31,479 bases of DNA from a virus (IMGVR_UViG_2547132280_000007); one strand, 5' to 3'. Numbered from the stretch's first letter, positions 11,800 through 31,479 are shown. Numbers and translations are program-made. The notes: generated by a model from the sequence alone, not told the origin.

Positions 11800-11803
11800 G
11801 GTT

Positions 11804-12783: not shown

Positions 12784-12849
12784 AACGGGAAGGATGCCGC
12801 CGGGTCATACCGGCGGCAATGTGACGATGAGGTGTCGGGAATGGCACAA

Positions 12850-14708: not shown

Positions 14709-14722
14709 GGTGTTTACTCCGT

Positions 14723-15220
14723 TTAAGCCGGTACGCCGCCGGCGGTACGCCAGACGGTGACCAGTTTTTCCAGTGAATGCTCACGCTGACCGTAACCGGC
14801 ACCCGGCAGGGACGCCCAGATATTGCGACAGCGTGAAATGGCGCGCTCAATGCGTCCCGTCCGGATGTCATTCAGTGCACCACGTTCGCGGATCAACTGA
14901 ATGGCGAGTCTGTCCTGTGACAACGGACTGAAATCAGGCAGGGCAAGCTGTTTGCGGTAATGCGGCCAGAACAGGTAAAGCTGCTGATAGCGACCGGAGG
15001 CCGTGGATTTTTCACCGCGACGGTTAAACACCTTCGCCGGTCGGCCATGCGCGAACGGGTGGTCACTGTAGTCGGTGAAGATTTCCGGCTTTCCGTCCAG
15101 TCCGGTGACTATCACGTCATAGCCCCGGTTTTTCGTCAGCGGATGATTCGCCGTCCCTTCGGACACGGCCAGCATGTCGAGAAAGGCGGCGATATTCTGA
15201 TGCGTGTTAATAACCGGCAT
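14723..15220 (-). CDS. K: endolysin gpK (lambda R-like lysozyme family), 165 aa
   Basis: 165 aa; follows the holin with a stop/start overlap. Confidence 0.85.
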   Translation of the reverse strand: MPVINTHQNIAAFLDMLAVSEGTANHPLTKNRGYDVIVTGLDGKPEIFTDYSDHPFAHGRPAKVFNRRGEKSTASGRYQQLYLFWPHYRKQLALPDFSPLSQDRLAIQLIRERGALNDIRTGRIERAISRCRNIWASLPGAGYGQREHSLEKLVTVWRTAGGVPA

Positions 15221-15501
15221 TACGGTTTCCCCCTGCCCTTAAAACGGCGCTGAATGGCAATCTCAATCACCTGATAGCCGGCGATACCCAGCATGGAGCC
15301 GATGCCGCACACCGCAGGCAGTGACAGGTCAGGAAACTGCACCAGAACAACACCGGCAACCATCGAGACAAAACCACCGAGCAACATGCGCCCGATAAAC
15401 AGACGCGGGGTGATGGGTTCACCACCGGCAAGCACCTTGCCGACAACAATCAGCACCCCAATCATGAAAAGCGACAGGACGCTTTTTTCTTCTGCTGTCA
15501 T
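15220..15501 (-). CDS. Y: holin gpY, 93 aa
   Basis: 93 aa with hydrophobic TM segments and a charged C-terminus (RRFKGRGKP). Confidence 0.85.
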   Translation of the reverse strand: MTAEEKSVLSLFMIGVLIVVGKVLAGGEPITPRLFIGRMLLGGFVSMVAGVVLVQFPDLSLPAVCGIGSMLGIAGYQVIEIAIQRRFKGRGKP

Positions 15502-15504
15502 GCG

Positions 15505-15708
15505 TTACTCCCACAGATTGACAGTTTCAGCCACGGGCGCGGTCTGAACGTCGGGCAGTTCGACGGCGGTGCCGTGCGGCAGCACCGCACCCAGTTCAGC
15601 CAGTCCCGGATTTGCGGCGAGCACGGCCTCGACCACACCCTCAGTGCGCCCGTAATACCGGACACAGATGGCGTCGAGCGTGTCGCCCTGTAGCGCAAAG
15701 GTCTTCAT
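15505..15708 (-). CDS. X: tail protein gpX, 67 aa
   Basis: Internal start MKTFALQGDTLDAICVRYYGRTEGVVE...; its ATG overlaps the L stop (TGATG). The track ORF extends to 15777. Confidence 0.8.
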   Translation of the reverse strand: MKTFALQGDTLDAICVRYYGRTEGVVEAVLAANPGLAELGAVLPHGTAVELPDVQTAPVAETVNLWE

Positions 15709-16217
15709 CAGATTTGACTCACAATGCAGCGCGGCTTGTCCTGGATTCGCGCCACTGCCCAGCGCATATCCCGCCACAGCTCATCAATGGTGCTGTCAAT
15801 GCTGTCGGCCTTCTTGTCGCCTTTGGCACTGGCATCCACGCCGCGATAACGCTCATAAAGCGATGCGGTCGCCATCGCACACACGGCGCGCTCGTAGTAA
15901 AAAACTTTGATGCTTTCACCGTCGATGTCGTCCGCCGGGACTTCCGCCAGACGCGTAAAACCGGCGGCAATTTTCTGTTCGCGGTACTCGTACAGCTCCG
16001 CATTCGTCTCCGCCATGCCTGACTTGATGGCCTCACGCAGACGGGCGGGGGCGACGGTCTGCTCAAGGCGCATACGTTCCCGGACGCGCTTCGGGTCGAT
16101 ATCGGGAAAAAAGAACGTGTTTTTAATCACCGGCTCGTCGCCTGCCGGTTGCGGGATGACCACCGTACCCTCACCGGACACGGGAGCCTCCTTTCGCGGA
16201 ATAATCAGCGTCATCAT
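15708..16217 (-). CDS. L: head completion protein gpL, 169 aa
   Basis: Start at MMTLIIPRKEAP... with GAGG 6 nt upstream; the track ORF extends to 16277. Confidence 0.8.
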   Translation of the reverse strand: MMTLIIPRKEAPVSGEGTVVIPQPAGDEPVIKNTFFFPDIDPKRVRERMRLEQTVAPARLREAIKSGMAETNAELYEYREQKIAAGFTRLAEVPADDIDGESIKVFYYERAVCAMATASLYERYRGVDASAKGDKKADSIDSTIDELWRDMRWAVARIQDKPRCIVSQI

Positions 16218-16316
16218 GACTACCTCAGAAAAGTCGGGCGGTGGACGCCGGTACAGTGTCAGGTGATTCACCCACACTGACCGGCGTGCCGCCCTGGCGC
16301 GGGGCGCATTCGGTTG

Positions 16317-17066
16317 TTAACTGGCTTTCTTTTTCGGGCGTCCACGTTTTTCCTGTGTCACGCTCCGGGTCTTACGCGGGGCGCGGGTGACCGCTTTTGG
16401 CTCCGGCTTCGGCTTCGGCTTCGGTTTCAGCTCCCGCTCCAGTCGTTCAATCTCTTTTTTGACGCCTGCCTGACAGTCGAGCTGTGTCGCACGTTGCAGG
16501 TGCGCCAGCGCACCGGCGGCATCACCACCGTCACGCAGAAACAGACCGGTAATTTTGTGCAGCTTTGCGCGCACTTCATCAGGCATGTCAGCCGTGGCGG
16601 TCAGTTCAAGGGTCTCCGTCAGCAGGCGGGTATCCACAGACTCACCGGCAGCGTGAGCGCGCATGGCCGCAAGCGCTACCTCCTCGGTGAACATGTACGG
16701 CGGGGTACGGCGGTGTTTACCCGGCATGGTCAGACCGTACTTCAGGGCATAACGGGCAATCTCCAGCGCACCGGCAATATCGCCGGTATCCAGACGCCAC
16801 AGCATGACCGTCATCAGAATGTCATCCTGTGCACCTTTGCCCTGCTCCAGCACACCGTTCACCCACGGCAACCAGAACGGCAGCAGTTCGCGCTTTTTCG
16901 CGGCCTTAAGCTCTTTTGAATAAATCGCTTTCAGTGTGCGCTGGTCTGCGGCCAGCTTGACCAGCATCTGCTCATAGACAGTTGCATGTCGCAGCGGGGC
17001 GGCTTCCCGCTGCGCGGTCATCGCTGCCGAGACCCGCATCATGTGGCGCTGTGCGGGACTCGTCAT
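16317..17066 (-). CDS. M: terminase small (endonuclease) subunit gpM, 249 aa
   Basis: Synteny N-M-L; the C-terminus contains a KPKPKPKPEPK tract. Confidence 0.85.
   Translation of the reverse strand: MTSPAQRHMMRVSAAMTAQREAAPLRHATVYEQMLVKLAADQRTLKAIYSKELKAAKKRELLPFWLPWVNGVLEQGKGAQDDILMTVMLWRLDTGDIAGALEIARYALKYGLTMPGKHRRTPPYMFTEEVALAAMRAHAAGESVDTRLLTETLELTATADMPDEVRAKLHKITGLFLRDGGDAAGALAHLQRATQLDCQAGVKKEIERLERELKPKPKPKPEPKAVTRAPRKTRSVTQEKRGRPKKKAS
16399..16428 (-). repeat. hexanucleotide tandem repeat (GGCTCC GGCTTC x3 GGTTTC) encoding (KP)n in gpM
   Basis: Read directly at 16399-16428 on the plus strand. Confidence 0.8.
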
Positions 17067-17069
17067 CGG

Positions 17070-18143
17070 TTACGCTCCCGGCTCTGCGGTCGCTTTAGCC
17101 GGTGTGGAGAAGTCACCGACCTTAATTTTTTCCACCAGACAACCGGCGGCGTAGTCTTCCACCACGTAATCAATGTTCATTGACTCGTAGTTCTCCACGC
17201 GGTCGAGTTTCGGGTTTTCCACAATCACGCGGCGATGGCTGTCATCCATGTAGTAGATGGACAGGTTTTCCAGCTTCGTAATGAGCATCGCATCCGCCGG
17301 GAAGTACGGGACGCGTACCGCCGGCAGGTTACCGATGCGTTTCTGACTGATGATGACGTCAGCGGCCAGCATTTCGCTGTTGTCCTGCTCTTTGTTGACG
17401 ATGGGGAAATACTTGTCCGCCAGTAGCTGACGCCCCACAATCACCACAAGGTCAGGGTCTTCCTGATACCACGGTTCAATCAGGTTGTTGGTCGCATCCA
17501 TCACCAGTGCGTCAAGGCTGGCATAATCACCGCCCTTACCCACGCGGATAACCTCAGAGGTGGTGTGCCCTTCCTCATCAGTGACCTTGCTCATCACGCG
17601 CGCCGGTGCTTCATTGCGGTATTTCTGCAGCCAGCCGACCGCCACATCCTGCAGCATCGGATTGCTGCTGCGGTCAGAGGTTTCGGCACGCTTCACGCCG
17701 TTAAAACCGGCCATGATGAAATCAAGGGACTGGCGTTTGATAATGGCGTTACGGATACGGAGCTGGAAATCCTGATAACGCGCCCACAGGTCAAGCGTTT
17801 TGTAGCGGATATAAAAATCGAAGTTAATCTGGTCGCATTCGTACTTGTTTGACGCCAGCTTCGAGAAGTCCTTTGGCTGACGCTCGGTGCCACCGGCGGT
17901 GTCGGTGGTGCTGGCGATGGAGCCGGTGACACCGATGCCAATTTTTTCCCCTTTCATTTCGCTGACCGGCACAATATTGATGCGGGTCAGAAAGTCAGAG
18001 GACTCCTGCATGGTGTTCATCAGGGTCTGGGTGACCGACGGTTCAACGGTGAATTTTTTCGACACATCACCGGCGTCGATGCCGTTCAGTTCGGCAACAC
18101 GGGACAGGTAGGCATTAAATTTAAAGCGGGTTTCCTGGCGCAT
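17070..18143 (-). CDS. N: major capsid protein gpN, 357 aa
   Basis: 357 aa, as P2 gpN. Confidence 0.9.
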   Translation of the reverse strand: MRQETRFKFNAYLSRVAELNGIDAGDVSKKFTVEPSVTQTLMNTMQESSDFLTRINIVPVSEMKGEKIGIGVTGSIASTTDTAGGTERQPKDFSKLASNKYECDQINFDFYIRYKTLDLWARYQDFQLRIRNAIIKRQSLDFIMAGFNGVKRAETSDRSSNPMLQDVAVGWLQKYRNEAPARVMSKVTDEEGHTTSEVIRVGKGGDYASLDALVMDATNNLIEPWYQEDPDLVVIVGRQLLADKYFPIVNKEQDNSEMLAADVIISQKRIGNLPAVRVPYFPADAMLITKLENLSIYYMDDSHRRVIVENPKLDRVENYESMNIDYVVEDYAAGCLVEKIKVGDFSTPAKATAEPGA

Positions 18144-18201
18144 AGTTTTTCCTGAAATTAAGGGTTAATCGTGAAGGTTTTCCCGGACTGACTGACGCCG
18201 G

Positions 18202-19056
18202 TCAGCAGTTCGTCATCAGCGTGTCACCGCCACCGCCGGTGGCTTTGCTGCGGCGCTGCTGGGTCAGACTTTCGGTGTGGTCGAGACTGTTTTTCAGGCG
18301 GGTGAATGCCTGGCTGGTTTCATCCGCCCTGTCAGTCACCTCCTGCTTAAGTGCGGAAAAGGCGGTTTCCATCTCAGCGAGGCGCTGCTCAGTGGCGCTC
18401 AGTTTTTCCTGCACATGTTCAGCAACAGCGGTCACCGCTTCATGCACGTCATTCAGACGGGCATCATCGCTGGCCTGTTTGCGGCCAAAAATGGACTTCA
18501 CCTTTTCGGTCAGGGCGGTGAACACGGTTTCAGGCAGGTCTTCAAATTCCAGCTCAACAGGCGTTGCCACTGAAATCAGGTTTTCAGGGCTTAATTTGAA
18601 GCGGTTCAGGGGGTTGTGTTTTGCCGTGCGGCAGAATTCCAGGTATTCCGTGCCGAGGCTTGCCGGGTCATCGGTGACGGCCAGCCCCACCAGATAACAT
18701 TTGCCGGTGTTGGCAAAGTTCGGCTGAATTTCCATTGAGGTGTAGACCTTCTGCGCGGCCTTGTTCATCGCGATAAGGTCATCGGTCGGGGTGATTTTCG
18801 CAAACAGCGCCCATTTGCCTTTCAGCGCCGAGTCATCGTCAATCTTTTCGGCCTTCAGTTCGGCCACATCGCCATAACGCTTAAAAATACCGTCAGGCAG
18901 GATGCCGCGCAGATGTTCCAGGTTAATGCGGCAACCGTAGACACGCGGGTCAAAGGTTTCGGCCATTTCCTGAATATCCTGCGCACTGATGACACGCCCG
19001 TCACAGGTGTCACCCTCAACGCCGATACGAAAGAATTTTGAGACTTTTTTTGCCAT
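18202..19056 (-). CDS. O: capsid scaffolding protein gpO, 284 aa
   Basis: Start at MAKKVSKFFRIGVEGDTCDGR... (ATG at 19056); the track ORF extends to 19122. Confidence 0.85.
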   Translation of the reverse strand: MAKKVSKFFRIGVEGDTCDGRVISAQDIQEMAETFDPRVYGCRINLEHLRGILPDGIFKRYGDVAELKAEKIDDDSALKGKWALFAKITPTDDLIAMNKAAQKVYTSMEIQPNFANTGKCYLVGLAVTDDPASLGTEYLEFCRTAKHNPLNRFKLSPENLISVATPVELEFEDLPETVFTALTEKVKSIFGRKQASDDARLNDVHEAVTAVAEHVQEKLSATEQRLAEMETAFSALKQEVTDRADETSQAFTRLKNSLDHTESLTQQRRSKATGGGGDTLMTNC

Positions 19057-19229
19057 TGTCAGGAGTCCTGAATAGTGATTAGAGGAGTCACATGTCGGCA
19101 TCAGTTTCCCGACGATGCGCATCCTCCGCCATCAGTCCCGGATGGCTTATCACTGACACAACAGCACCTTAGCGAATCGCGGGGCGCGACTCAGTAGCCT
19201 TGCCGTGTATTCATCACGGCGAGGTATTC
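19057..19229. promoter_or_regulatory. divergent late promoter region between O and P
   Basis: 173-bp non-coding spacer between the divergent O and P starts; contains the dyad GTCGG-N10-CCGAC (about 19094-19113). Confidence 0.5.
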
Positions 19230-21002
19230 ATGACCATCACCACAGACACCACTCTTTTACACGACCCGCGTCGTCAGGCGGCGCTGCTGTACTGGCAGGG
19301 ATTTTCCGTGCCGCAGATTGCCGCCATGTTGCAGATGAAACGCCCGACGGTGCAGAGCTGGAAACAGCGCGACGGCTGGGACAGCGTTGCCCCCATCAGC
19401 CGTGTCGAAATGAGTCTGGAAGCGCGGCTGACCCAGCTCATCATCAAACCGCAGAAAACCGGCGGTGACTTCAAGGAAATTGACCTGCTCGGACGCCAGA
19501 TTGAACGACTGGCACGGATAAACCGCTACAGTCAGACCGGCAACGAGGCAGACCTTAATCCGAACGTCGCTAACCGCAACAAAGGCGGGCGTCGCAAACC
19601 GAAAAAGAATTTTTTCAGTGACGAGGCCATCGAAAAGCTGGAGCAGATTTTCTTTGAGCAGTCTTTCGACTATCAGTTGCACTGGTATCGCGCCGGGCTT
19701 GAGCACCGCATCCGCGATATCCTGAAATCCCGCCAGATTGGCGCAACGTTTTATTTTTCCCGCGAGGCGCTGCTGCGTGCCCTGAAAACCGGTCATAACC
19801 AGATTTTTCTGTCGGCCAGTAAAACGCAGGCGTATGTGTTCCGCGAATACATCATCGCCTTTGCCCGTCTGGTTGACGTTGACCTGACCGGTGACCCGAT
19901 TGTCCTGGGCAATAACGGCGCAAAACTGATTTTTCTCGGCACCAACTCCAACACCGCACAGAGCCATAACGGTGACCTGTACGTCGACGAGATTTTCTGG
20001 ATCCCGAATTTTCAGGTACTGCGTAAGGTGGCATCAGGTATGGCCTCACAGAGTCACCTGCGCTCGACCTATTTCTCCACCCCGTCCACGCTGGCGCACG
20101 ACGCCTACCCGTTCTGGTCGGGTGAACTGTTTAACCGGGGACGCGCCAGCGCCGCTGAACGCGTGGAAATCGACGTCAGTCATAACGCCCTTGCCGGTGG
20201 GCTTCTCTGTGCGGACGGCCAGTGGCGGCAGATTGTCACCATTGAGGACGCCCTGAAAGGCGGCTGCACATTGTTCGACATTGAGCAGCTTAAACGCGAA
20301 AACAGCGCCGACGATTTTAAAAACCTGTTCATGTGTGAATTTGTTGACGACAAGGCATCGGTGTTCCCGTTCGAGGAGCTGCAACGCTGCATGGTCGACA
20401 CGCTGGAAGAATGGGAAGACTATGCGCCGTTTGCCGCAAATCCGTTCGGCTCACGTCCGGTATGGATTGGTTACGACCCGTCACACCGTGGCGACAGCGC
20501 CGGATGCGTGGTACTGGCACCGCCGGTGGTGGCCGGTGGCAAATTCAGAATACTTGAGCGTCACCAGTGGAAAGGCATGGACTTTGCCACCCAGGCGGAA
20601 TCCATCCGCAAACTCACCGAAAAATACAACGTCGAATACATCGGAATTGATGCCACCGGCCTCGGTGTCGGCGTGTTCCAGCTCGTGCGCTCGTTCTATC
20701 CCGCCGCGCGCGATATCCGCTACACGCCGGAAATGAAAACCGCAATGGTGCTCAAGGCAAAAGACGTTATCCGCCGTGGCTGTCTGGAATATGACGTCAG
20801 CGCCACCGACATCACCAGCTCGTTTATGGCTATCCGCAAGACCATGACCAGCAGCGGACGCAGTGCCACCTATGAGGCCAGCCGCAGCGAGGAAGCCAGC
20901 CACGCCGACCTCGCCTGGGCGACCATGCACGCCCTGTTAAATGAGCCACTCACCGCCGGTATCAGCACCCCGCTGACATCCACCATTCTGGAGTTTTACT
21001 GA
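19230..21002 (+). CDS. P: terminase large (ATPase) subunit gpP, 590 aa
   Basis: Start at MTITTDTTLL... (ATG 19230, GAGGT 4 nt upstream) gives 590 aa, the P2 gpP length. Confidence 0.9.
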   Translation: MTITTDTTLLHDPRRQAALLYWQGFSVPQIAAMLQMKRPTVQSWKQRDGWDSVAPISRVEMSLEARLTQLIIKPQKTGGDFKEIDLLGRQIERLARINRYSQTGNEADLNPNVANRNKGGRRKPKKNFFSDEAIEKLEQIFFEQSFDYQLHWYRAGLEHRIRDILKSRQIGATFYFSREALLRALKTGHNQIFLSASKTQAYVFREYIIAFARLVDVDLTGDPIVLGNNGAKLIFLGTNSNTAQSHNGDLYVDEIFWIPNFQVLRKVASGMASQSHLRSTYFSTPSTLAHDAYPFWSGELFNRGRASAAERVEIDVSHNALAGGLLCADGQWRQIVTIEDALKGGCTLFDIEQLKRENSADDFKNLFMCEFVDDKASVFPFEELQRCMVDTLEEWEDYAPFAANPFGSRPVWIGYDPSHRGDSAGCVVLAPPVVAGGKFRILERHQWKGMDFATQAESIRKLTEKYNVEYIGIDATGLGVGVFQLVRSFYPAARDIRYTPEMKTAMVLKAKDVIRRGCLEYDVSATDITSSFMAIRKTMTSSGRSATYEASRSEEASHADLAWATMHALLNEPLTAGISTPLTSTILEFY

Positions 21003-22036
21003 TGAGCAAGAAAAAAGGGAAAACACCGCAACCTGCGGCAAAAAAAATGACCGCCAGCGCCCCGAAAATGGAGGCATTCACCTTTGGTGAGCCGGTGCCG
21101 GTACTCGACCGGCGTGACATTCTGGATTACGTCGAGTGCATCAGTAACGGCAGATGGTATGAGCCACCGGTCAGCTTTACCGGTCTGGCGAAAAGCCTGC
21201 GTGCTGCCGTGCATCACAGCTCACCGATTTACGTCAAACGTAATATTCTGGCCTCGACATTTATCCCGCATCCATGGCTTTCCCAGCAGGATTTCAGCCG
21301 CTTTGTGCTGGATTTTCTGGTATTTGGTAATGCATTTCTGGAAAAGCGTTACAGCACCACCGGTAAAGTTATCAGGCTGGAAACCTCACCGGCAAAATAT
21401 ACCCGCCGTGGTGTGGAAGAGGATGTTTACTGGTGGGTGCCGTCCTTCAACGAGCCGACAGCCTTCGCGCCCGGCTCCGTGTTTCACCTGCTGGAGCCGG
21501 ATATTAATCAGGAGCTGTACGGCCTGCCGGAATATCTCAGCGCCCTTAACTCTGCCTGGCTGAATGAGTCGGCCACGCTGTTCCGCCGCAAGTATTACGA
21601 AAATGGCGCACATGCCGGATACATCATGTACGTCACTGATGCCGTGCAGGATCGCAACGATATCGAAATGCTTCGCGAAAACATGGTCAAGTCGAAAGGC
21701 CGCAACAACTTTAAAAATCTGTTTCTCTATGCCCCGCAGGGGAAAGCCGACGGCATTAAAATTATCCCGCTCAGTGAAGTGGCAACGAAGGACGATTTTT
21801 TTAATATCAAAAAAGCCAGCGCCGCTGACCTGCTGGACGCGCACCGCATCCCCTTTCAGTTGATGGGCGGCAAGCCGGAGAACGTCGGGTCGCTGGGTGA
21901 TATTGAGAAAGTGGCAAAGGTCTTTGTCCGCAATGAACTTATCCCGTTACAGGACAGGATTCGGGAAATAAACGGCTGGCTCGGCCAGGAGGTCATCCGC
22001 TTTAAAAACTACTCACTGGACACTGACAACGGCTGA
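21002..22036 (+). CDS. Q: portal protein gpQ, 344 aa
   Basis: 344 aa; start overlaps the P stop (TGATG). Confidence 0.9.
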   Translation: MSKKKGKTPQPAAKKMTASAPKMEAFTFGEPVPVLDRRDILDYVECISNGRWYEPPVSFTGLAKSLRAAVHHSSPIYVKRNILASTFIPHPWLSQQDFSRFVLDFLVFGNAFLEKRYSTTGKVIRLETSPAKYTRRGVEEDVYWWVPSFNEPTAFAPGSVFHLLEPDINQELYGLPEYLSALNSAWLNESATLFRRKYYENGAHAGYIMYVTDAVQDRNDIEMLRENMVKSKGRNNFKNLFLYAPQGKADGIKIIPLSEVATKDDFFNIKKASAADLLDAHRIPFQLMGGKPENVGSLGDIEKVAKVFVRNELIPLQDRIREINGWLGQEVIRFKNYSLDTDNG

Positions 22037-22041
22037 ACATC

Positions 22042-22063
22042 GCCGCCTGCGGGCGGCTTTTTT
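22042..22063 (+). terminator. intrinsic terminator after Q
   Basis: gccgcc-tgcg-ggcggc stem-loop (22042-22057) followed by TTTTTT (22058-22063). Confidence 0.7.
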
Positions 22064-22205: not shown

Positions 22206-22224
22206 GTGCTTTCCCCGCCTCGCC
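22206..22224. other. cos: cos cohesive-end site (19 nt)
   Basis: gtgctttccccgcctcgcc is the reverse complement of GGCGAGGCGGGGAAAGCAC, which I recall as the P2 19-nt cohesive end. It lies about 170 bp past the Q stop, the expected position. Confidence 0.6.
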
Positions 22225-22299
22225 CGCCCGCTTCATGGGGCGGTTTTAATGCAGTTGCATGAGTACGTTGGAACCGCACTGGTGCTGACGATACCCAAT

Positions 22300-22320
22300 C
22301 AAACCTTGCTGTATAATTAC
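22300..22320 (+). promoter_or_regulatory. candidate sigma70 promoter for the cargo operon
   Basis: TG immediately followed by a perfect TATAAT (22310-22317), about 130 nt upstream of the cargo gene start; the -35 element is weak. Confidence 0.3.
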
Positions 22321-22450
22321 TTGCGAATTCACGCACATCAACGCGAATCTTACATCATGAATAATTCATTTATGGCTACAGAATGAGTATATTGCATGTT
22401 ATGAAATAACTTTGTGCTCCTTCTCGTGGACATGTTCAACGGAGATCCAG

Positions 22451-23572
22451 ATGATTGCTGATTCAGAAATACTTTATGTTCCGCTAGATGATTTGGAACT
22501 TGACACAGAAAACCCAAGACTTCCTGAAGGCGTGTCTCGTGACCAATTGGGAATGATTAACTACATAGCAACCTCAACATCTATCGAAGACTTAATGAGT
22601 GCTATTGCGGAAAATGGTTTTTTCCCTGGAGAACCATTGATTGTCATTCCTGATAGTGGAGCGCCGGGGAAGTACATTGTAGTTGAAGGAAACCGTCGCC
22701 TATCCGCGGTCAAATTATTACGCGATCCGACACTATGTGAAAATCCAAGTGCTCGACTACGAGAAATTGCATCAAATGCAAAACATACGGTCGATCGTGT
22801 TCCTGTCATTGAGCGCCAAACAAGAGAAGAGATTCTTCCGTACCTTGGTTTCAGACATATTACTGGTGTCAAACAATGGGAACCCTTATCAAAAGCTCGA
22901 TATATTAAACAGCTTTTTGATTATACCAATGCAAATCTGGATCCAATGCTACGCTACTATGAGGTTGCCAGAGCTATTGGCAGTCGTAGGGATCATATCA
23001 AGCGTAACCTAGACGCTTTAGCGGTGTATGAAATCATTAAAAAAAATGATTTTTATGGTATTGAAAAGCTAGATGAAGAAACGATTAAATTTTCAGTATT
23101 ATCAACAGCACTTGCTGATGAGCGGTTAGGCCAGTTTGTCGGAGTTTCAATCGAAGACGATGGAGACACAATACCAAGTCATCCTATCATCAATTCTAAG
23201 AGTTTAAAGAACAAAGAAATAAAAGAACTAACTGAATGGTTATATAAAAAAGGCGAGGATAAAAAAACTCGTGTAGGAGAATCACGTAATTTAAGAGAAC
23301 TAGCTGCTGTTGTAAGTAGCCCTAAGGCATTGGAGCAATTCCGAATGGGGGCTCCACTCGCAGTTGCCTATCAATTGACATCTGATATTACTAAGGACTT
23401 TCTCCAGTTACTTTATCAAGTTGAAGCAGCTTTGATAGATGCAGCAGGCATGGTTGCCACGGTAGAGTATGATAGACAGGCCCATGAAGTAGCACGAAGA
23501 ATCAATAAACATATTAAGCTTATAGGTTCTGAAATAGCAGAGAAAAATAGCAGAGGTGATGATGACTTTTGA
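22451..23572 (+). CDS. ParB/Srx-like N-terminal domain protein, 373 aa (cargo gene 1)
   Basis: Start at ATG 22451 with GGAG 6-7 nt upstream. The N-terminal 150 aa follow the ParB N-domain pattern: LDDLELDTENPR, IVVEGNRRLSAVKLL (GxRR box), VPVIER. AT-rich. Confidence 0.7.
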   Translation: MIADSEILYVPLDDLELDTENPRLPEGVSRDQLGMINYIATSTSIEDLMSAIAENGFFPGEPLIVIPDSGAPGKYIVVEGNRRLSAVKLLRDPTLCENPSARLREIASNAKHTVDRVPVIERQTREEILPYLGFRHITGVKQWEPLSKARYIKQLFDYTNANLDPMLRYYEVARAIGSRRDHIKRNLDALAVYEIIKKNDFYGIEKLDEETIKFSVLSTALADERLGQFVGVSIEDDGDTIPSHPIINSKSLKNKEIKELTEWLYKKGEDKKTRVGESRNLRELAAVVSSPKALEQFRMGAPLAVAYQLTSDITKDFLQLLYQVEAALIDAAGMVATVEYDRQAHEVARRINKHIKLIGSEIAEKNSRGDDDF

Positions 23573-24551
23573 AGTAGGAGTTATGCATCCCAACTCTCCT
23601 CATTTGTTTGCAGATTTAGCCGAGTTACTCACGGTAATTAATTATACCGGACGTAACTCACTACATAAAAATGATTTAGATTCAGTAAGAAAATTCGGCA
23701 TAACAAGCGTTGAAGAAATTGATGAAGAATGTAATTCTGAAGAAGAAATTAATGGAGACGCTGAGAGAAATGATCGTTTTGAAGAGCAACTCGAAGATGT
23801 TTGGACACAACTCGAATATAGAGAAAGTGCTCTTGGAAAAATATATCCATTTATAATTTCAGGTGATGAGATAATTATTAAAGAAAATCTAAACCAACAA
23901 CAACGAATATATGTTTTTCTTCTTTGCTGCTCTAGACTTAGATCCTTTAAGTCGATTAAAGGAGCAGCACAACGTTGGGCAAAGAGCTTTGCCAGAGTAT
24001 GTAAAGTAGCAATGATTTCTCTCTTACCTGCACATGGCACCGTAAGAATTTTTGATGCTAACTCCGATGATAGGCAAAATTATTATGGAACAAATCTTCG
24101 GACAGCTCTACAAACTTTAGGAAAAGATCTTGGAGTTTGTAGTTTAAACACAAGGGAAATAAATAGAGCTCCCACATCTGGTGATGCCGGGTTTGACCTA
24201 ATTGCTACAGTGGAATTTCCTGATGGTCAAACTAGCAACTATGGAATTCTTGGTCAATGTGGTGCACAAGAAACAGGGTGGCCAAGCAAAACATTAGAGG
24301 CTAACGTGTTAAAACTGACCACCTATTTCCAAATTGCGTTCCAGCATCCATCAACAATGTTCACGCCTGTTTTCTATCGGGAAGCAAATGGCGAATGGGT
24401 AAGCACACACGCAACCGCTGGGGTATTATTATTAGATAGGTTGAGAATCATATATCTACTTGATAAGGCAAACCAATGGGAAGCGATAACTACCTCTGAT
24501 TGGTTTCGCGAATTTGAGGAAGAGCTTTATACATTAAATCCAGAGCCTTAA
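23562..24551 (+). CDS. hypothetical protein, about 329 aa, translationally coupled to gene 1 (cargo gene 2); possible nuclease or effector
   Basis: Overlaps the gene 1 stop by 11 nt. Start is uncertain (GTG 23556, ATG 23559/23562 or ATG 23583); AGAGG lies 5 nt before ATG 23562. No confident motif seen. Confidence 0.6.
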   Translation: MTFEVGVMHPNSPHLFADLAELLTVINYTGRNSLHKNDLDSVRKFGITSVEEIDEECNSEEEINGDAERNDRFEEQLEDVWTQLEYRESALGKIYPFIISGDEIIIKENLNQQQRIYVFLLCCSRLRSFKSIKGAAQRWAKSFARVCKVAMISLLPAHGTVRIFDANSDDRQNYYGTNLRTALQTLGKDLGVCSLNTREINRAPTSGDAGFDLIATVEFPDGQTSNYGILGQCGAQETGWPSKTLEANVLKLTTYFQIAFQHPSTMFTPVFYREANGEWVSTHATAGVLLLDRLRIIYLLDKANQWEAITTSDWFREFEEELYTLNPEP

Positions 24552-24558
24552 TAGCTTA

Positions 24559-25503
24559 TCAATCCCATAATTCTATTGGCAATGCCTTCGTTACAGCTTC
24601 AAAAAGCGGCGGAGGCACTGCATTACCAACCACCGTGTATTTCATGCCAAGACTTGCAGCATTTGTTTCTGGAAACACTAGATCCTCAAACCCTTGTAAT
24701 AGTGCTGCCTCTCGAAAACTGAATCTGCGAGCTCTCCGATCCTCAACAAATCTCCATTCATCAGTTCTTACTTTCTCCATCGGAGGACTGACAGGATGCA
24801 ACGGCATATGCCTTGCATTAGCAACTATTGTCTTTGAAATTTGATCCCAATCCTGGCGACGATTGCGAGACATATAATACCAATGGAATCCCATATCATA
24901 AAATTCACCTTCTGGCCATTCAGGTAAATGCCCTATAGCATCTTTAATAGTAACATAGTTGACGCCAGTTGCTGGCCCATGAGTTGGCTGAGGGAACTCG
25001 TACTTAACTTTGAAATCATTACGGATTCCTACGATAAATATTCTTTTTCTTTCCTGCGCTACTCCATATTCAGCCGCATTTAAAACTTTTGCGGAAACAG
25101 TATAACCTGCTTCAGTAAAAACCCTGATCTGGTCAGATAACAAATGCTCAAAATTTTTTCTAACCATACCAGACACGTTTTCTACTATAAAAGCTTTAGG
25201 CTTTATATTGTTTAAAGCTCTAGCAAACTCTAAATAAAGAGTATTAATTTTTCGATCGGCTTTACGCGCACCACCCTGGCTGAATCCCTGACATGGATAA
25301 CAACCTACCAGCAAATCAGATTTAGGAAAAGTAGTTACATCAGCAATATTGCCTAATATGTAATCAGTTTCTGGATGATTGGCAATATAAACATCGCGCG
25401 CATACGGCAAGATATCGTTGGCCATAAGCACATCAAAGCCGGCTCTCAAAACCCCCGCATCGGAACCACCGCATCCAGAAAAAAGTGAAACTACTGTTGG
25501 CAT
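24559..25503 (-). CDS. DNA (cytosine-5)-methyltransferase, 314 aa
   Basis: C5-MTase motifs in canonical order: I SLFSGCGG, IV GCYPCQGFS (catalytic Pro-Cys), VI FIVENV, VIII QERKRIFIVG, X VVGNAVPP. Strong SD (GGAGGGGATA) before the ATG. Confidence 0.85.
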   Translation of the reverse strand: MPTVVSLFSGCGGSDAGVLRAGFDVLMANDILPYARDVYIANHPETDYILGNIADVTTFPKSDLLVGCYPCQGFSQGGARKADRKINTLYLEFARALNNIKPKAFIVENVSGMVRKNFEHLLSDQIRVFTEAGYTVSAKVLNAAEYGVAQERKRIFIVGIRNDFKVKYEFPQPTHGPATGVNYVTIKDAIGHLPEWPEGEFYDMGFHWYYMSRNRRQDWDQISKTIVANARHMPLHPVSPPMEKVRTDEWRFVEDRRARRFSFREAALLQGFEDLVFPETNAASLGMKYTVVGNAVPPPLFEAVTKALPIELWD

Positions 25504-25704
25504 TATCCCCTCCTAAAACCGACCGCGTATTATAGCGAAAGCCTCCGTATATAGAAGCAGGTTTTGAACAAGATTATGTTCTCACTTTTTAACAACTGTG
25601 GCCATAAAAAATTAGCTCAATATGAAAAACAGATTAATTCATTGTTTTTCATAGAAAAATTCCACAAACACTATAACATTCCCACAACACTGCAGTAGTA
25701 GTCA

Positions 25705-27981
25705 TTATTGTTTAATTGAAAAAACCGACCACTCATTAGCGACCGGATACGTGAATTTTTTCCCGTCATAATTTACGGTTGCCCCACGCGCCAGCGCCTC
25801 AAGCTCCCATCGCTGCGGCCTGATACCGTTCTGAGCAAGGTCAACGCGGATACGGGTAATTTGCATTCGTTCCGACCGGGTCAGTCTGGCCGATGGTGCC
25901 ATTTCATGCGGTTTTAACGGGCTTCCGTTTCTTTGCTGGCGATTTGGTGTTCTCAGGCCATGTTTTAATGCACCTCTGAGCGCCCTCACGACCTCCGGGT
26001 CATTCCATTCGATGACACCGTCATCAACCAGATTAAGCACTGCTGCGGCGTGCTCAGAAGGTGTGGGGGCTGGTAACGAAGTATCACCACCGGTGAGCTT
26101 TCCACAGTTATTGACAGGACTCCGAGGCGCGGCGATGCCGCTTTTTAAAGTCAAAGGCTCAACGACCGGAACTTTCGGCACAATGCGCCAGTCCGTCGTT
26201 CTGGTGATATGAATATGACGCGCGCCGAGATGCGGCGCGTAAATGCCGACCACTCTCTCGACTTCTTCCTCGTACTCGTTAACGTCATCCGACGGGCTAC
26301 GGGCAACCCTGACAGTCTGACAATCGCGCGGGACATTTGCCCCACCCTGCGCGCTGATATACAACGCAAAATCACCACTGTCTGCGGCAGCGCGAGCAGC
26401 CTCGACGCGTTCGTCAAACTCATCAGCAATACTGACGCCGCGAGGCAATTTGCGTAGTTCACGGTAAGCCCCCATTGTCGGCAGTCCAACCGTTTTAAAT
26501 TGCGGGATGCGCCACGTTGACGCCCATGCGGTAACAGCCGCGGCAGTATCTTTAAGCGGCTTACCGGTATCGTTATCGAGCTGACCATCCAGTGCATAGC
26601 CGTCGATATTTTTTGAAATGTATTTCGCGATATATCCCGCAGCACCGCCCCGGTTAAGGTGCTTTGCCTGAAAACGGTTTCGCGCGGCTCCTCTTTCGTC
26701 ACCATCCTCTTTGAGCGCATAGCGACGCATGATTTCGATAATCTGGTTACGCTGGCGTGGATTACAAAAAAGCATCATATGCCAGTGCGGCGTTCCGTCG
26801 TGGTGTGGCTCGACGACACGCAAACCGTAGACCTGTAAATCATTATCCTTAAATGCCGTGCGCATCAGGCTCCAGATGCGGCAGAGATAACGCTGCGCAT
26901 CCTTTGGATTAAATGCCTCATCGTTCCAGCCGTGATTAAGCTGAACGGTTTTACTTTCGCCTTTTCTGACCTGACGAGTCGGGTGATACTTTGACGGCGC
27001 GGTCAGCGTGATAAACATCCCCACATCACCCTCTGCGGCGGCGTAACGCTCAATACCGGCAATGGTGTTCATCAGCTCCATCCGGCGAATTTCAGGATTA
27101 GAAATACTGCCCATCACCTTACTGATAAGGTCGATGCGCTCGCCGGTTTCCCTGTTTTCAAGGTCACACGATTTAAGAAATTCCAGATTTGCCTGGCGGC
27201 GCGCACGCACATCACGAATGGCGTGTTTACTGGCATAAGGAGAACGGTCTTTATTGACCTCCCCGACAGCTATCAGTAACGCTTCATGCCAGCGCATACG
27301 CTGGCCTTTAAGCTGATGAGTCCACCACTCATCGTTAAACAGACGGGCAATGGCAGAATATGCCTGCCTCGTGGTCATCTGCCCTTTACGGTATTTTTTC
27401 CAGTAGAGCGGGGATATATTGAAAGCACGTGCAGCGCCAGCAACATGACCATAGAGGTGAGCCTGCGCCTCATCCGTAAACAGCGATTCTTTTTCGCCAT
27501 GCGCATCCACCCAGGCATCGCTGAGTTCCTCATACATCATGAAAAGCTGCGATGAGATACGGGCAACAAACTTTTTCAGCTCCTTGTCATTCATTCCCGG
27601 CAGGCGCGCATAGTGGTCACGCTCTGCCAGAAACAGTAACGACGCGTCGGTGTTCATTTCATGGCGCTGATTCACACGCTCAATGCGCGGCCATAAACGA
27701 CGCTGAAAAGTGGATGTGAGGAAATAAAACCCGTGCACCGGGCTTTTATTGCGCCGGATGTAGTCATAGCGTGAAGTAAACAGCGAGCGCAAAAAGTAAG
27801 GCAGGCGGTTAATCGTGGATAAAACACCCTGCACCTGACGCATCTCGTCACGTGTAAGGGGTCTTTCGCGCCCGACAGCCTCGCGTGGCGCGTTCCATGC
27901 ATAAGCACCGGTAAACGCCTTACCGGTGCCTGCGGCAAATACTGACGGAGGGACAAAACGCCCGGAGGCTTTAACGGCCAT
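25705..27981 (-). CDS. A: replication initiation protein gpA (rolling-circle nickase)
   Basis: Large protein directly after B and the small ORFs. Start chosen at MAVKASGRFVPP... (ATG 27981, coupled to the upstream ORF stop); the track ORF extends to 28023. Confidence 0.85.
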   Translation of the reverse strand: MAVKASGRFVPPSVFAAGTGKAFTGAYAWNAPREAVGRERPLTRDEMRQVQGVLSTINRLPYFLRSLFTSRYDYIRRNKSPVHGFYFLTSTFQRRLWPRIERVNQRHEMNTDASLLFLAERDHYARLPGMNDKELKKFVARISSQLFMMYEELSDAWVDAHGEKESLFTDEAQAHLYGHVAGAARAFNISPLYWKKYRKGQMTTRQAYSAIARLFNDEWWTHQLKGQRMRWHEALLIAVGEVNKDRSPYASKHAIRDVRARRQANLEFLKSCDLENRETGERIDLISKVMGSISNPEIRRMELMNTIAGIERYAAAEGDVGMFITLTAPSKYHPTRQVRKGESKTVQLNHGWNDEAFNPKDAQRYLCRIWSLMRTAFKDNDLQVYGLRVVEPHHDGTPHWHMMLFCNPRQRNQIIEIMRRYALKEDGDERGAARNRFQAKHLNRGGAAGYIAKYISKNIDGYALDGQLDNDTGKPLKDTAAAVTAWASTWRIPQFKTVGLPTMGAYRELRKLPRGVSIADEFDERVEAARAAADSGDFALYISAQGGANVPRDCQTVRVARSPSDDVNEYEEEVERVVGIYAPHLGARHIHITRTTDWRIVPKVPVVEPLTLKSGIAAPRSPVNNCGKLTGGDTSLPAPTPSEHAAAVLNLVDDGVIEWNDPEVVRALRGALKHGLRTPNRQQRNGSPLKPHEMAPSARLTRSERMQITRIRVDLAQNGIRPQRWELEALARGATVNYDGKKFTYPVANEWSVFSIKQ

Positions 27982-28246
27982 ATGAGCCAAAAGCCTCTGA
28001 ACAACGCTTGCTGAGTTGCTCAACCTGCGCGTTTAAATCAGCAAAAGATTTTGCGCTTCCGGTCAGAATATCGTGATGCATCAGGCCGGAAACGAGCTGG
28101 CTTAATTTCGGGTAATAACCAACCACTGCCAGCCATTCCTGACCGGCGTTTTTACCGCTTTCCGCTCTCTTTCTCTCGTGGAGAATAAACTGAAAGCTGT
28201 CACTGGTAACGACATAACGTTCGCCAATTTCAATACGAATACTCAT
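27971..28246 (-). CDS. small early protein, 91 aa (P2 orf83-position)
   Basis: Synteny between B and A; overlapping stop/start with neighbours. Confidence 0.6.
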   Translation of the reverse strand: MSIRIEIGERYVVTSDSFQFILHERKRAESGKNAGQEWLAVVGYYPKLSQLVSGLMHHDILTGSAKSFADLNAQVEQLSKRCSEAFGSYGR

Positions 28247-28467
28247 GCCATTCTCCGGTAATGTTTGTTTTTTGCTTCAAAGACTGACTGACAGGAAACA
28301 CAACGCGTGGCTGACGGATAAGCCGCACGACGGGCAGCAGGTATTGGCGCGTCACACTCTTCGCAAACCAGCGCAGAAGCACCGCAATGTTTTACCCTTG
28401 CCGCGTTAATCTGGCGCTCCAGTAATTCAGCCTGTTGTTCCTGAATAAAATCTACGTTGTCCGGCAT
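28243..28467 (-). CDS. TraR/DksA-like C4 zinc-finger protein, 74 aa (P2 orf82-position)
   Basis: Two CxxC pairs: CEEC and CVSC separated by about 17 aa. Confidence 0.65.
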   Translation of the reverse strand: MPDNVDFIQEQQAELLERQINAARVKHCGASALVCEECDAPIPAARRAAYPSATRCVSCQSVFEAKNKHYRRMA

Positions 28468-28469
28468 TA

Positions 28470-28772
28470 TCAGCTCCTTTTATCGTTAAGTTTCCTGGAT
28501 ACATCAGCGCAATAAATGACAAGTTCTGTCGTTAATTTTGTCAGTTCATCCACGGAGGAAATTTGCTTGTGAAATACAGCGCGTTTCACAAGTAAATTGA
28601 CCACATCAGACAGGAGGTTTAATTCGTTCTGATAAATCGCGATAACAGATTCAGTTATTTCGTGTTTTTCTTTATCAAGCCTAAGTTGAATAAGAGACAA
28701 ATCGCCATTTTTCATAACGGAGATTTTTAAGGCATTGTTCAGTAATACAACTGAACGAGAACAGGACATCAA
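28470..28772 (-). CDS. small early protein, 100 aa (P2 orf81-position)
   Basis: Synteny; overlapping stop/start with neighbours. Confidence 0.55.
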
Positions 28773-28993
28773 AGCACCTCCCCGCGAGACAATCCGATAT
28801 TGTGAAATTTTTCCGACTCCTGACTGAGCAGCTCGACTATCTCCACGCGGGATAACTCCGCCTTTGTGATGTGGCGAATCATGGCGTCAAGATGAGAAGA
28901 AAAGCGCGTCGCTGCATCGGCCTGTGCTTCGGTTCTGGCCTGTTGCAGCAGTAATGCGTATTTACCGCACTGATTTTCAGAAACTGTATGCAT
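28769..28993 (-). CDS. small early protein, 74 aa (P2 orf80-position)
   Basis: Synteny immediately downstream of B. Confidence 0.55.
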
Positions 28994-29056
28994 GACTTTC
29001 TCCAGGCAAAAAGAAGCCCCGCACGATTAAGTGCGTTAAAAACTCTGGTTAATTAT

Positions 29057-29557
29057 TTAATGCAGATATTGCTCTGGTTTAACCGACGTCAGAATTGTCG
29101 GTGCATACTCAAACAGGCTGAATAATTCACGTAATGCACGGAATAAGGCATCACGCCAGTAACATGATTCTTCATTAATTCGCCAGTATGGCTGGTTGAA
29201 TTCTTTTTCAGTCAATCCGGCATGCATAAATAAAGTACGGCGCTGACTGACTGTTAAAAAACTAATATATGCATACTCACTTGCACCGACCTGACGGCGT
29301 TTTGAGAATGCCCCACGCAGTTCATCAATTGCACAAACCAGCCGTTCACGTTCGACGTCGTTCATTTCTTCAAAACGCATCGTTGCGTGACGTTGTTTTA
29401 ACTGCGCATGGAAGCAAACCGTTAACCGTTCGCGCTCCATCATCTGATTATAATAATCACATGTATCCTGCCAGCGAGGGACGGCAAGATGCTTACCAAT
29501 TATCCGGCGCATAGCTGCTGGCTGTTTTTCAACGAGATTAAGCGTCATCACTGTCAT
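29057..29557 (-). CDS. B: replication protein gpB (helicase-loader-like), 166 aa
   Basis: Start at the third codon (MTVMTLNL...) gives the P2 gpB length; the track ORF extends to 29563. Confidence 0.8.
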   Translation of the reverse strand: MTVMTLNLVEKQPAAMRRIIGKHLAVPRWQDTCDYYNQMMERERLTVCFHAQLKQRHATMRFEEMNDVERERLVCAIDELRGAFSKRRQVGASEYAYISFLTVSQRRTLFMHAGLTEKEFNQPYWRINEESCYWRDALFRALRELFSLFEYAPTILTSVKPEQYLH

Positions 29558-29724
29558 TTCCATACCCTCCGGCTTTTCAGAAAGGTCAGAGCCTTCTTTA
29601 ACGGACTCTGTTTTTTGGTGCGGATAATGATTCCCTTGCGCCCCTTCCCGTGGGTGATGGTGAAGTCAATCGCCCTGGGGCTTTCGTTACGCAGTAACTG
29701 AGCAATACAACGCGGCTCATTCAT
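29554..29724 (-). CDS. small ORF between cox and B (P2 orf78-position)
   Basis: Start MNEPRC... at ATG 29724 (GGATGGGG upstream); its stop overlaps the B start. Small and basic; weak evidence. Confidence 0.4.
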   Translation of the reverse strand: MNEPRCIAQLLRNESPRAIDFTITHGKGRKGIIIRTKKQSPLKKALTFLKSRRVWK

Positions 29725-29726
29725 AA

Positions 29727-30014
29727 TCACAACCCCATCCACAAGAGCCATGCATCACGCTGTTCAACCGGTCGGTTATAAAACGCCTCACGTACAGCGC
29801 GATTAAACTCAGGAATGAAAACCCATTTTTCACCGGCACGAGCCTTCGGTTTGCAAGGATCACGCAATTCAATAATTGGTAATTTATTTGCTTTCACCAT
29901 TTCACTGACGGCTGTCTTTGGCTTCCCTAATAAATCAGCAAATTTATCCACATGAACCGCATCAAGCGGATACTGAATCACATAATTTTCAGCGTCCATA
30001 TATGGTACCCTCAT
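29727..30014 (-). CDS. cox: Cox-like excisionase / early-promoter repressor, 95 aa
   Basis: First gene of the leftward early operon, divergent from C. ...RDPCKPKARAGEKWVFIPEFN...WLLWMGL parallels the P2 Cox pattern as recalled, but is clearly diverged. Confidence 0.7.
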   Translation of the reverse strand: MRVPYMDAENYVIQYPLDAVHVDKFADLLGKPKTAVSEMVKANKLPIIELRDPCKPKARAGEKWVFIPEFNRAVREAFYNRPVEQRDAWLLWMGL

Positions 30015-30076
30015 AGGATCCAGCCCTTTCTAAACCACTCAAAACCGTTTAGACGCTGGTTTATTCTCAAATCAAT

Positions 30077-30094
30077 GGAACCTATATAGGTTCC
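30077..30094. promoter_or_regulatory. 18-bp perfect palindrome GGAACCTATATAGGTTCC; candidate operator
   Basis: Read directly from the sequence. Confidence 0.55.
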
Positions 30095-30114
30095 AGTTTT
30101 GAGGGAATTTAGTC

Positions 30115-30124
30115 CCTATATAGG
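30115..30124. promoter_or_regulatory. second CCTATATAGG copy, 34 bp downstream of the first; candidate operator
   Basis: Direct repeat of the 10-bp palindromic core, ending 11 bp before the C start. Confidence 0.5.
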
Positions 30125-30135
30125 CACCATGTCAA

Positions 30136-30429
30136 ATGAAATTAAGCGAAAAGATTAAGGCCTTGCGTGAGGCTGAAGGGCTAAGCCAATCAAAATTCTG
30201 TGAAATCATAGAGTTACCGCTAAGCACACTTAAAAAATATGAAGGAGGAAACTTTGAACCCGGTGGCACAGCTTTGCTAAAAATCACTATGCATCCCACA
30301 TTCCAAAAATATGCTCTATGGCTTATGACAGATAAAACCGCGCCGGACGCAGGACAAATCGCACCGGCTCTCGCGCACATTGGGCCAGAGTCAACAGAGT
30401 CCAACCACTCCGCGAAAAGGATTGGCTAA
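30136..30429 (+). CDS. C: immunity repressor C, 97 aa
   Basis: The C-terminal ...YALWLMTDKTAPDAGQIAPALAHIG... resembles the P2 C repressor as recalled; divergently oriented to cox. Confidence 0.75.
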   Translation: MKLSEKIKALREAEGLSQSKFCEIIELPLSTLKKYEGGNFEPGGTALLKITMHPTFQKYALWLMTDKTAPDAGQIAPALAHIGPESTESNHSAKRIG

Positions 30430-30498
30430 CTCTATATAAAGATTACATTTTCACCATTTGCTACCAAGATGGTGAATACAGCGCCGGAGGGCTTTCTT

Positions 30499-31479
30499 AT
30501 GGCAATTAAGAAGCTCGATGATGGTCGCTATGAAGTGGACATTAGACCTCGCGGTCGCGACGGAAAACGCATCCGCAGGAAATTCGAAAGAAAAGCTGAA
30601 GCACTAGCATTTGAGCGATACACAATCGCCAATGCCAGTCAGAAAGAATGGGGAGGCCAGCGAGCAGACCGCCGAACTTTGAGTGAGTTGCTGGACATCT
30701 GGTGGAAATATCACGGGCAAAACCACGAGCATGGAACAAAAGAGTTTAATCATCTACTCAAAACCATCAGCGGCATAGGTGATATACCAGTGAGCCGGAT
30801 GAGCAAAAGGGCTTTGATGGATTATCGTTCCATGCGACTACGTGATGGTATCAGTGCCGCAACGATAAACCGTGACATGTACCGATTATCCGGCATGTTC
30901 ACAAAATTAATTCAATTGGATGAATTTTCCGGGCAACACCCAATTCACGGACTGCCGCCACTGGCGGAGGCCAACCCTGAAATGACGTTCCTGGAAAAAG
31001 CAGAAATCGCAAAACTGTTAAATGTTTTGGCTGGTGATGACTTACTTGTCGCGCTTTTATGTCTGAGCACTGGAGGAAGATGGACGGAAGTTGCCACGCT
31101 AAAACCAGCACAGATTACAAATTGCAGGGTTACCTTCCTGAAAACCAAAAACGGTAAAAAGCGAACCGTGCCGATTTCTGAGGAACTGGAGAAAAAAGTT
31201 AAAGAGGAGGCCAGCGCCAAATTATTCAAAGTTGATTATGAGAAATTTTGCGGGATTTTACGCAGAGTGAAACCTGATATACCACCCAATCAGGCAACCC
31301 ACATCCTGCGGCATACATTCGCAAGCCATTTCATGATGAATGGGGGCAATATAATCGCACTGCAACAGATTCTGGGACATGCGAGCATTCAGCAGACGAT
31401 GGCCTATGCGCACCTTGCGCCTGACTACCTGCAAAATGCCGTCGCTCTGAATCCACTAAAAGGCGGAGTGACGTTATAA
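30499..31479 (+). CDS. int: tyrosine integrase, 326 aa
   Basis: Start MAIKKLDDGRYEVDIRP... (GGAGGG 7 nt upstream); C-terminal catalytic motifs HILRHTFASHF and GHASIQQTMAYAHL (Tyr). The stop is the last codon of the window. Confidence 0.9.
   Translation: MAIKKLDDGRYEVDIRPRGRDGKRIRRKFERKAEALAFERYTIANASQKEWGGQRADRRTLSELLDIWWKYHGQNHEHGTKEFNHLLKTISGIGDIPVSRMSKRALMDYRSMRLRDGISAATINRDMYRLSGMFTKLIQLDEFSGQHPIHGLPPLAEANPEMTFLEKAEIAKLLNVLAGDDLLVALLCLSTGGRWTEVATLKPAQITNCRVTFLKTKNGKKRTVPISEELEKKVKEEASAKLFKVDYEKFCGILRRVKPDIPPNQATHILRHTFASHFMMNGGNIIALQQILGHASIQQTMAYAHLAPDYLQNAVALNPLKGGVTL

Follow-up and report, generated by a model that had tools for sequence, protein, structure and literature searches.

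A ParB-fold protein, a predicted nuclease-fold partner and a C5 methylase form a conserved cassette in the tin/old hotspot of a P2-like prophage

The closest described system to the locus reported here is PD-lambda-5, a validated two-gene system of an Escherichia coli prophage in which a ParB/HEPN protein is paired with a methyltransferase (Vassallo et al., 2022; PMC9519451). The reference proteins are RCQ13837.1 and RCQ13838.1 of strain ECOR7, and the system was described by its authors as a compacted restriction–modification (R-M) plus abortive-infection (Abi) system; its cloning made use of a host with mrr deleted, and the protection that it gave was broad, being strongest against T-even phages (PMC9519451). 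The A protein (about 450-500 aa) begins with a ParBc domain and is weakly similar to DUF4145/HEPN at its C-terminal end, and the B protein is a D12 (Dam-class) N6-adenine methylase. The present analysis concerns positions 22225-25704 of a viral DNA stretch of 31,479 nucleotides (IMGVR_UViG_2547132280_000007; hereafter the window, meaning the whole stretch), which derives from a P2-like prophage. This island occupies the tin/old slot of the prophage, between cos and replication gene A, and it is filled by three open reading frames (ORFs):

22451-23572, + strand: gp1 (WP_000559725.1), 373 aa, ParB/KorB-like protein with a nucleoside triphosphate (NTP)-binding N-domain, a helix–turn–helix (HTH) and a helical C-terminal domain.
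23562-24551, + strand: gp2 (WP_000142509.1), 329 aa, predicted N-terminal winged helix and C-terminal PD-(D/E)xK restriction-endonuclease-like fold.
24559-25503, - strand: gp3 (WP_001143636.1), 314 aa, C5 cytosine DNA methyltransferase, M.HaeIII-like.

The gp2 ORF overlaps gp1 by 11 nt and gp3 is convergent with gp2 at a distance of 7 nt. On balance, the cassette is probably a defence system of R-M-like type in which a ParB-fold NTP switch acts as the gate. An earlier note, made from the DNA alone, had named a ParB-fold protein, a partner encoded by an overlapping gene and a C5 methyltransferase in convergent orientation, in agreement with the ORFs, the fold matches and the PF00145 match given below; its proposal of an atypical R-M or other defence system is still the best reading of the locus.

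The longest ORF for gp1 starts at 22412 (TTG); the PGAP start at 22451 (ATG) has the sequence GGAG 7 nt upstream and is consistent with the N-termini of homologues. A confident AlphaFold2 model was obtained [predicted local distance difference test (pLDDT) 89.5], the fold of which matches KorB, Spo0J and Pnob8 ParB, their DNA-binding domains included. As in the ParB, KorB and Noc clamps, an N-terminal nucleotide-binding fold with an arginine patch (GNRR) is followed by an HTH; the box E79-G-N-R-R83 (EGNRR) is invariant in 36 homologues, the arginine-patch motif of ParB being GERR. Unlike these clamps, gp1 has a different C-terminal domain, lacks a ParA and a segregation context, and has a nuclease-fold protein and a methylase as partners. 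The C-terminal region of about 140 residues is helical and gave no informative structural match. Fold comparison gave no evidence of a HEPN domain, and the Rx4H-like string RRINKH, considered as a HEPN motif, was rejected as it is not conserved among homologues. A Pfam search with gp1 gave no match (no ParBc at E <= 0.1), and the sole result of a PDB sequence search with the family profiles of gp1 and gp2 was a marginal ParB match of the gp1 profile (E 0.016). At least 25 PD-Lambda-5_A models of PADLOC match gp1; the best (E 6.6e-29) aligns gp1 aa 22-295 with profile positions 7-277 of 440. According to the excerpt consulted of a 2025 survey of the ParB-CTPase fold, prophages are enriched in orphan ParB-fold proteins, and such proteins can have CTP, ATP or GTP as ligand (PMC12704722). 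ParB fusions to methyltransferase or HNH domains are described in the same excerpt, which does not mention the present operon (PMC12704722).

Like PD-lambda-5, the cassette lies in a prophage and combines a protein having a ParB N-domain with a DNA methyltransferase. A genuine PD-lambda-5 is present in Marinobacter phage AS1 (A, 486 aa; B, E 4e-103), and the gp1 family aligned with AS1 gp27 at an hhalign probability of 98.8%, over only the N-terminal ~200 residues (~186 columns). Four features could be tested for membership of PD-lambda-5. The ParB N-domain is present and the other three are not: gp1, at 373 aa, has a C-terminus that is not alignable to the HEPN/DUF4145-like half of the A protein, gp3 is a C5 methylase and not a Dam-class enzyme as B is, and in place of an operon of two co-directional genes there are three genes, of which that for the methylase is convergent. 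The best PADLOC matches of gp3 were DruM and MTase_II, with PD-Lambda-5_B not among the best 25 of 63 matches; true PD-Lambda-5_B proteins score E 1e-103 to 1e-118. From these sequence comparisons the cassette appears as a sister of PD-lambda-5, in which the ParB and HTH module is common to both and the effector and methylase differ. It is not categorically new, since PD-lambda-5 is a relative that already has a name and the version of the locus in phage Wphi was annotated long ago. The statement in the earlier note that no architecture could be named thus needs amending in respect of PD-lambda-5 and of the Wphi annotation; it stands in that no characterised system with the same gene order was matched, the module held in common being only the N-terminal one of PD-lambda-5A. 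Defence catalogues are expected to miss the cassette as a system, because gp2, unlike gp1 and the methylase, has no PADLOC match, and because gp3 differs from the B component that PD-lambda-5 requires.

A naturally split PD-lambda-5 was observed in Vibrio phage ValB1MD-2 (L053, 3132-5571), where three genes adjoin an integrase: the two A halves match profile positions 4-238 and 250-502 of 503, and a PD-Lambda-5_B methylase comes next. The candidate explanation of gp2 as a C-half of PD-lambda-5A detached in this manner was rejected (hhalign probabilities 0.3-0.5%).

No match to gp2 was found in Pfam, NCBIfam or PADLOC, and hence none to a restriction-enzyme family in Pfam or PADLOC; the protein belongs to PHROG 3984, of unknown function. 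Its structure model is confident [pLDDT 87.7, predicted template-modelling score (pTM) 0.89], and the winged helix and restriction-endonuclease fold are supported by two independent structure methods. MspJI was the best structural match of the nuclease domain in both structure searches, and AspBHI also scores; using Foldseek against the PDB, MspJI came top (E 5.7e-3, probability 0.99) and BsaWI next, with scores that are modest, although consistent. Nearly all of the loci examined have retained [D/E]208, D212, D221, Q232, C233, W240, K243 and D292-R-x-R295, as well as G210 with two exceptions; the acidic, Gln and Lys residues are kept across all clades. In the model D212 begins a strand and Q232 ends the next strand, which is the usual place of a D...(D/E/Q)xK motif. 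The D212-x19-Q232 spacing resembles the D-x20-QxK of MspJI. Unlike the MspJI family, gp2 has an N-domain that is predicted to be a winged helix, no SRA-like 5-methylcytosine (5mC)-binding domain being seen in this part of the predicted structure; its motif reads D...QxG and not D...QxK, and the system is linked to a methylase.

The PF00145 profile matches gp3 over its full length (2-322 of 324; E 5.5e-65), TIGR00675 also matches (E 1.4e-56), and the PCQ and ENV catalytic motifs are present in the translation. Alignment with M.HaeIII (1dct) covers residues 4-308, the target-recognition region included (E 1.4e-48), from which our guess would be a GGCC-related target. GGCC is mildly depleted in the backbone of the prophage (0.71) and not in the island, which is uninformative on the target of gp3. 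PacBio methylome data reported for O145:H28 strain RM13514 comprise adenine marks only; this strain carries a gp1–gp2 pair of the type found in phages vB_EcoM-12474. Expression of a HaeIII-like C5 methylase by a common prophage would alter the methylome, and methylation of the M.HaeIII type should sensitise DNA to McrBC and Mrr in recipient cells.

Conservation of the triad was assessed with a homologue scan using one genome per species, which returned 42 loci spanning Beta-, Gamma- and Alphaproteobacteria, Acidobacteriota, Latescibacterota and Dehalococcoidia. A gp2 homologue directly follows gp1 in nearly all loci where the contig continues, and the two genes overlap in most loci examined. 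The order of the window (a gp1 homologue, an overlapping gp2 homologue and a convergent PF00145 methylase) recurs in a Methylophilaceae genome, an integrative island of Pseudomonas and a Burkholderia prophage, the last of which has the triad beside an integrase. An adjacent C5 methylase is present in about 26 of about 33 informative loci, either downstream and convergent or upstream and co-directional, usually 0-20 nt from gp1 or gp2, at gp1 identities from 62% down to 35%. In 24 three-gene loci the identities of gp1 and gp2 homologues to the window proteins co-diverge (r = 0.94), and the methylase identity is 54-80% in 19 of these 24 loci, whatever the gp1–gp2 divergence. This pattern indicates that gp1 and gp2 behave as one co-evolving unit and the methylase as a conserved, exchangeable module. 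In two Methylophilaceae loci an HNH_2 (PF13391) gene lies between the gp2 homologue and the methylase (L006, 7165-7929; L007, 3165-4097), so that the triad can take in a fourth nuclease gene.

Among phages, Wphi (NC_005056) has the same triad as orf98-orf96-mth, in the same slot (portal/cos to gene A), order and orientation. The identities of gp98, gp96 and mth to gp1, gp2 and gp3 are 34%, 25% and 76%, respectively; the effector pair is thus highly diverged between the two versions, whereas the methylase is not. Since deposition the Wphi proteins have been annotated only as gp98, gp96 and methylase, without function. Equivalent loci are carried by the vB_EcoM-12474 phages (gp1 identity 61%) and by the P2-like Pseudomonas aeruginosa phage D14A, and these loci and that of Wphi are the same system as the cassette. 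In 5426 complete E. coli genomes three variants were counted, which together occur in 188 (~3.5%):

Window variant: 48 of 5426.
Wphi variant: 104 of 5426, carriers including E. coli W, LY180 and KO11FL.
12474 variant: 36 of 5426, carriers including O145:H28 RM13514 and RM12581.

A truncated gp1-like ORF (62% identity over 79% of gp1) was observed in the same hotspot of Yersinia phage L-413C (L052, 207-1199), where gp2 and the methylase are deleted; it looks like a decaying copy of the cassette.

We infer from these data that the island would be a self-contained, horizontally mobile, R-M-like anti-phage cassette in the tin/old hotspot, which the prophage most likely keeps to exclude competing phages. 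In this scheme gp3 would mark, and so protect, resident DNA. Because they are translationally coupled and co-evolving, gp1 and gp2 probably form one effector complex, in which gp1 would be a sensor that binds or slides on DNA under the control of an NTP, in the manner of ParB and KorB, and the nuclease-fold domain of gp2 would cut unmarked DNA licensed by gp1. A broader interpretation, which we hold as a tentative minority view, is that the triad, and by extension PD-lambda-5, could form a distinct class of restriction-like immunity where a ParB-CTPase-fold switch replaces the helicase/translocase of Type I/III systems or the GTPase of McrBC. The ParB switch would then load on DNA, close or slide as a clamp and license its partner nuclease, and the self mark set by the methylase would block loading or licensing. 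If true, this would be the first NTP-switch clamp to serve as the surveillance engine of an R-M system.

Several observations weigh against an R-M-like system of this kind. The gp2 motif is D212-x19-Q232-C-G234, and the position of the canonical catalytic Lys is Gly, Ala or Thr in every member; to judge from the model, nuclease activity would require K243 or a non-standard site, and the fold may only bind DNA. PD-lambda-5 acts best against T-even phages, the DNA of which is hypermodified, and this argues against plain restriction as the activity of the family. About seven of the ~33 informative loci have an intact gp1–gp2 pair and no methylase within the 4-6 kb examined. These loci keep all of the conserved gp2 residues, and at least three of them (L016, L021 and L022) lie between housekeeping genes, with the flanking pairs citrate synthase/LysR, aconitase/GDSL lipase and NadA/GMP synthase; the neighbours scanned at these three included neither a methylase nor a mobile-element gene. 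All seven are contigs of metagenome-assembled genomes (MAGs), and a methylase may sit elsewhere in those incomplete genomes. A classical restriction enzyme without its methylase is expected to be lethal. The methylase-less pairs therefore imply either that the methylase is located elsewhere in the MAGs or that cleavage is not simply gated by methylation. In addition, the methylase identity is uncoupled from gp1–gp2 divergence (r = 0.09, 24 loci), a different C5 methylase (~30% identity) is found in the other loci, mostly of an alphaproteobacterial clade, and the methylase is transcribed separately and convergently, which is compatible with a looser association. No functional study of the cassette or of its Wphi, 12474 or D14A relatives was found in the literature searched; term searches of the P2 hotspot surveys (Rousset 2022; a 2026 P2/P4 survey) gave nothing relevant.

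The methylase-less loci, at about 20%, are also the main support for two independent modules that travel together, namely a methylation-independent defence or Abi pair, gp1–gp2, and an orphan C5 methylase that shields phage DNA from host restriction or serves epigenetic control. The uncoupled divergence of the methylase points the same way, as do its location on the opposite strand with a promoter-like element of its own, its variable position upstream or downstream of the pair and the HNH gene that can separate it from gp2. We nevertheless regard this arrangement as unlikely: a C5 methylase is kept immediately adjacent in most informative loci, across at least four phyla and in many non-phage contexts, and chance hitch-hiking would not survive over the range of gp1 identity observed. 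The sister system PD-lambda-5, moreover, always pairs its ParB protein with a methylase and needed an mrr-deleted host. An ordinary Type II R-M system is decidedly less probable; gp2 would be its restriction enzyme, gp3 its methylase and gp1 a KorB-like controller, analogous to a C protein, that times expression of the nuclease. The cassette does resemble Type II systems such as HaeIII in that a C5 methylase is linked to a DNA-binding protein with a predicted PD-(D/E)xK fold. It differs from them in having a third, ParB-fold partner that co-evolves with the nuclease-fold protein, in the missing canonical Lys and in the absence of an adjacent methylase from about one in five pairs, and these pairs speak against a plain restriction enzyme. 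A mere regulator also fits poorly with gp1 itself, which has 373 aa, is the better conserved partner, is translationally coupled to gp2 and co-diverges with it, and a homologous ParB module is fused to the effector in PD-lambda-5 instead of being a separate regulator.

A modification-dependent system had been offered as an alternative by the earlier note. Here gp1–gp2 would be a Type IV-like nuclease directed against phages with modified cytosine, and the methylase would have a specificity that is not recognised or some other role. The MspJI-like fold of the gp2 nuclease domain, with the AspBHI score, is a weak hint in its favour, and the viable methylase-less pairs and the preference of PD-lambda-5 for T-even phages are compatible with it; the idea found no other support and we consider it very unlikely. 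The winged helix of gp2 takes the place of an SRA-like base-flipping domain, the Lys of the motif is absent, and a 5mC-dependent nuclease tightly linked to a C5 methylase would risk self-killing. Finally, public annotations name gp1 a 'ParB/RepB/Spo0J family partition protein', and its ParB-N fold and HTH would suit a partition or maintenance protein in an island that is not for defence. This function was rejected as hardly credible: the element is an integrated P2-type prophage, the neighbours of gp1 are limited to gp2, the methylase, portal Q and gene A, with no ParA beside it here or in related loci, and it is constantly accompanied by a nuclease-fold protein and a DNA methylase. The TIGR00180 score of gp1 (32.8 bits) is far below the cut-off of 58.45. 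An R-M-like cassette with a ParB-fold switch thus remains the interpretation that we prefer.

The island is true cargo, foreign by composition: its GC content is 0.34-0.43 (500-nt windows, 22501-25500) compared with 0.52-0.60 in the backbone (10501-22000). GATC shows no avoidance in the island (13 observed, 14 expected) and strong avoidance in the backbone (1-22224 and 25705-31479; 12 observed, 111 expected). The low GC of three genes in a tin/old hotspot had been pointed out in advance, and both the contrast and the flanking genes confirm it. That the island is not a chance feature follows from the identical cassette in 48 of 5426 complete E. coli genomes and from the recurrence of the triad in many taxa. 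The left boundary was set by aligning the window with the linear genome record of Yersinia phage HQ103: identity over 22225-25704 is 99.9%, and the last base of the record corresponds to window position 22225; the start coordinate of the island is therefore the cos end. DNA to the left of this position is common to many P2-like phages in the alignment. The surrounding features and the promoter-like elements are as follows:

19200-21002, + strand: terminase P, left of the island.
21002-22036, + strand: portal Q, left flank of the island.
22225: left boundary of the island, coinciding with the cos end of the phage.
22306-22320, + strand: candidate gp1 promoter -10 element TTGCTGTATAAT.
25509-25514, - strand: putative gp3 Shine–Dalgarno sequence AGGAGG.
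25529-25534, - strand: putative gp3 promoter-like -10 element TATAAT.
25704: right boundary of the island, the stop codon of gene A starting at 25705.
25705-28023, - strand: replication gene A, right flank of the island.

The promoter-like elements in this list were read from the sequence by eye and are not scan output. A consensus scan for promoters and terminators gave counts no higher than in shuffled sequence, and the gp1 -10 element was missed by it because the -35 is weak. A terminator-like GC-rich hairpin with a T-run was observed at 22224-22243 (+), exactly at the cos end and island boundary, and a second terminator-like hairpin lies 3' of the portal gene at 22042-22057. The 6-bp palindromes CAGCTG, CGGCCG, GGCGCC, GAGCTC and AAGCTT do not occur in the backbone.

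In P2-like phages this slot is a proven hotspot for defence genes (PMC9519451; PMC9122126), and the cassette presumably shares with P2 tin and old, besides their genomic position, a role in the exclusion of other phages. Names of the Old or Tin type were not among the family matches of the three proteins, no direct comparison with Tin or Old having been made. In the P2-like Burkholderia phage KL3 an R-M module of EcoRII-C, Vsr and Dcm adjoins the portal gene (PMC3091744); like it, the cassette is mobile, compositionally foreign and located beside the portal gene of a P2-like phage. P2-like prophage hotspots are a major part of the immune repertoire of E. coli, and many of their genes, this triad included, are still labelled hypothetical. 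Among the carriers are E. coli W, a strain of industrial and laboratory use, and O145:H28 outbreak strains, and relatives are found in at least four phyla. The cassette joins the roles of the ParB-CTPase fold with self/non-self discrimination based on methylation, and the Wphi lysogen E. coli W or the 3.5 kb cassette itself offers a tractable means of studying a ParB-type switch in immunity.

At the opposite end of the prophage, an ORF of 213 aa with ~40% GC (1-642, - strand) was observed just beyond ogr (783-1082, - strand). It has no Pfam domain, and PD-T4-10_A, the expected partner, is absent from the window; it matches PD-T4-10_B of PADLOC (E 1.3e-34) and is probably a second defence cargo gene.

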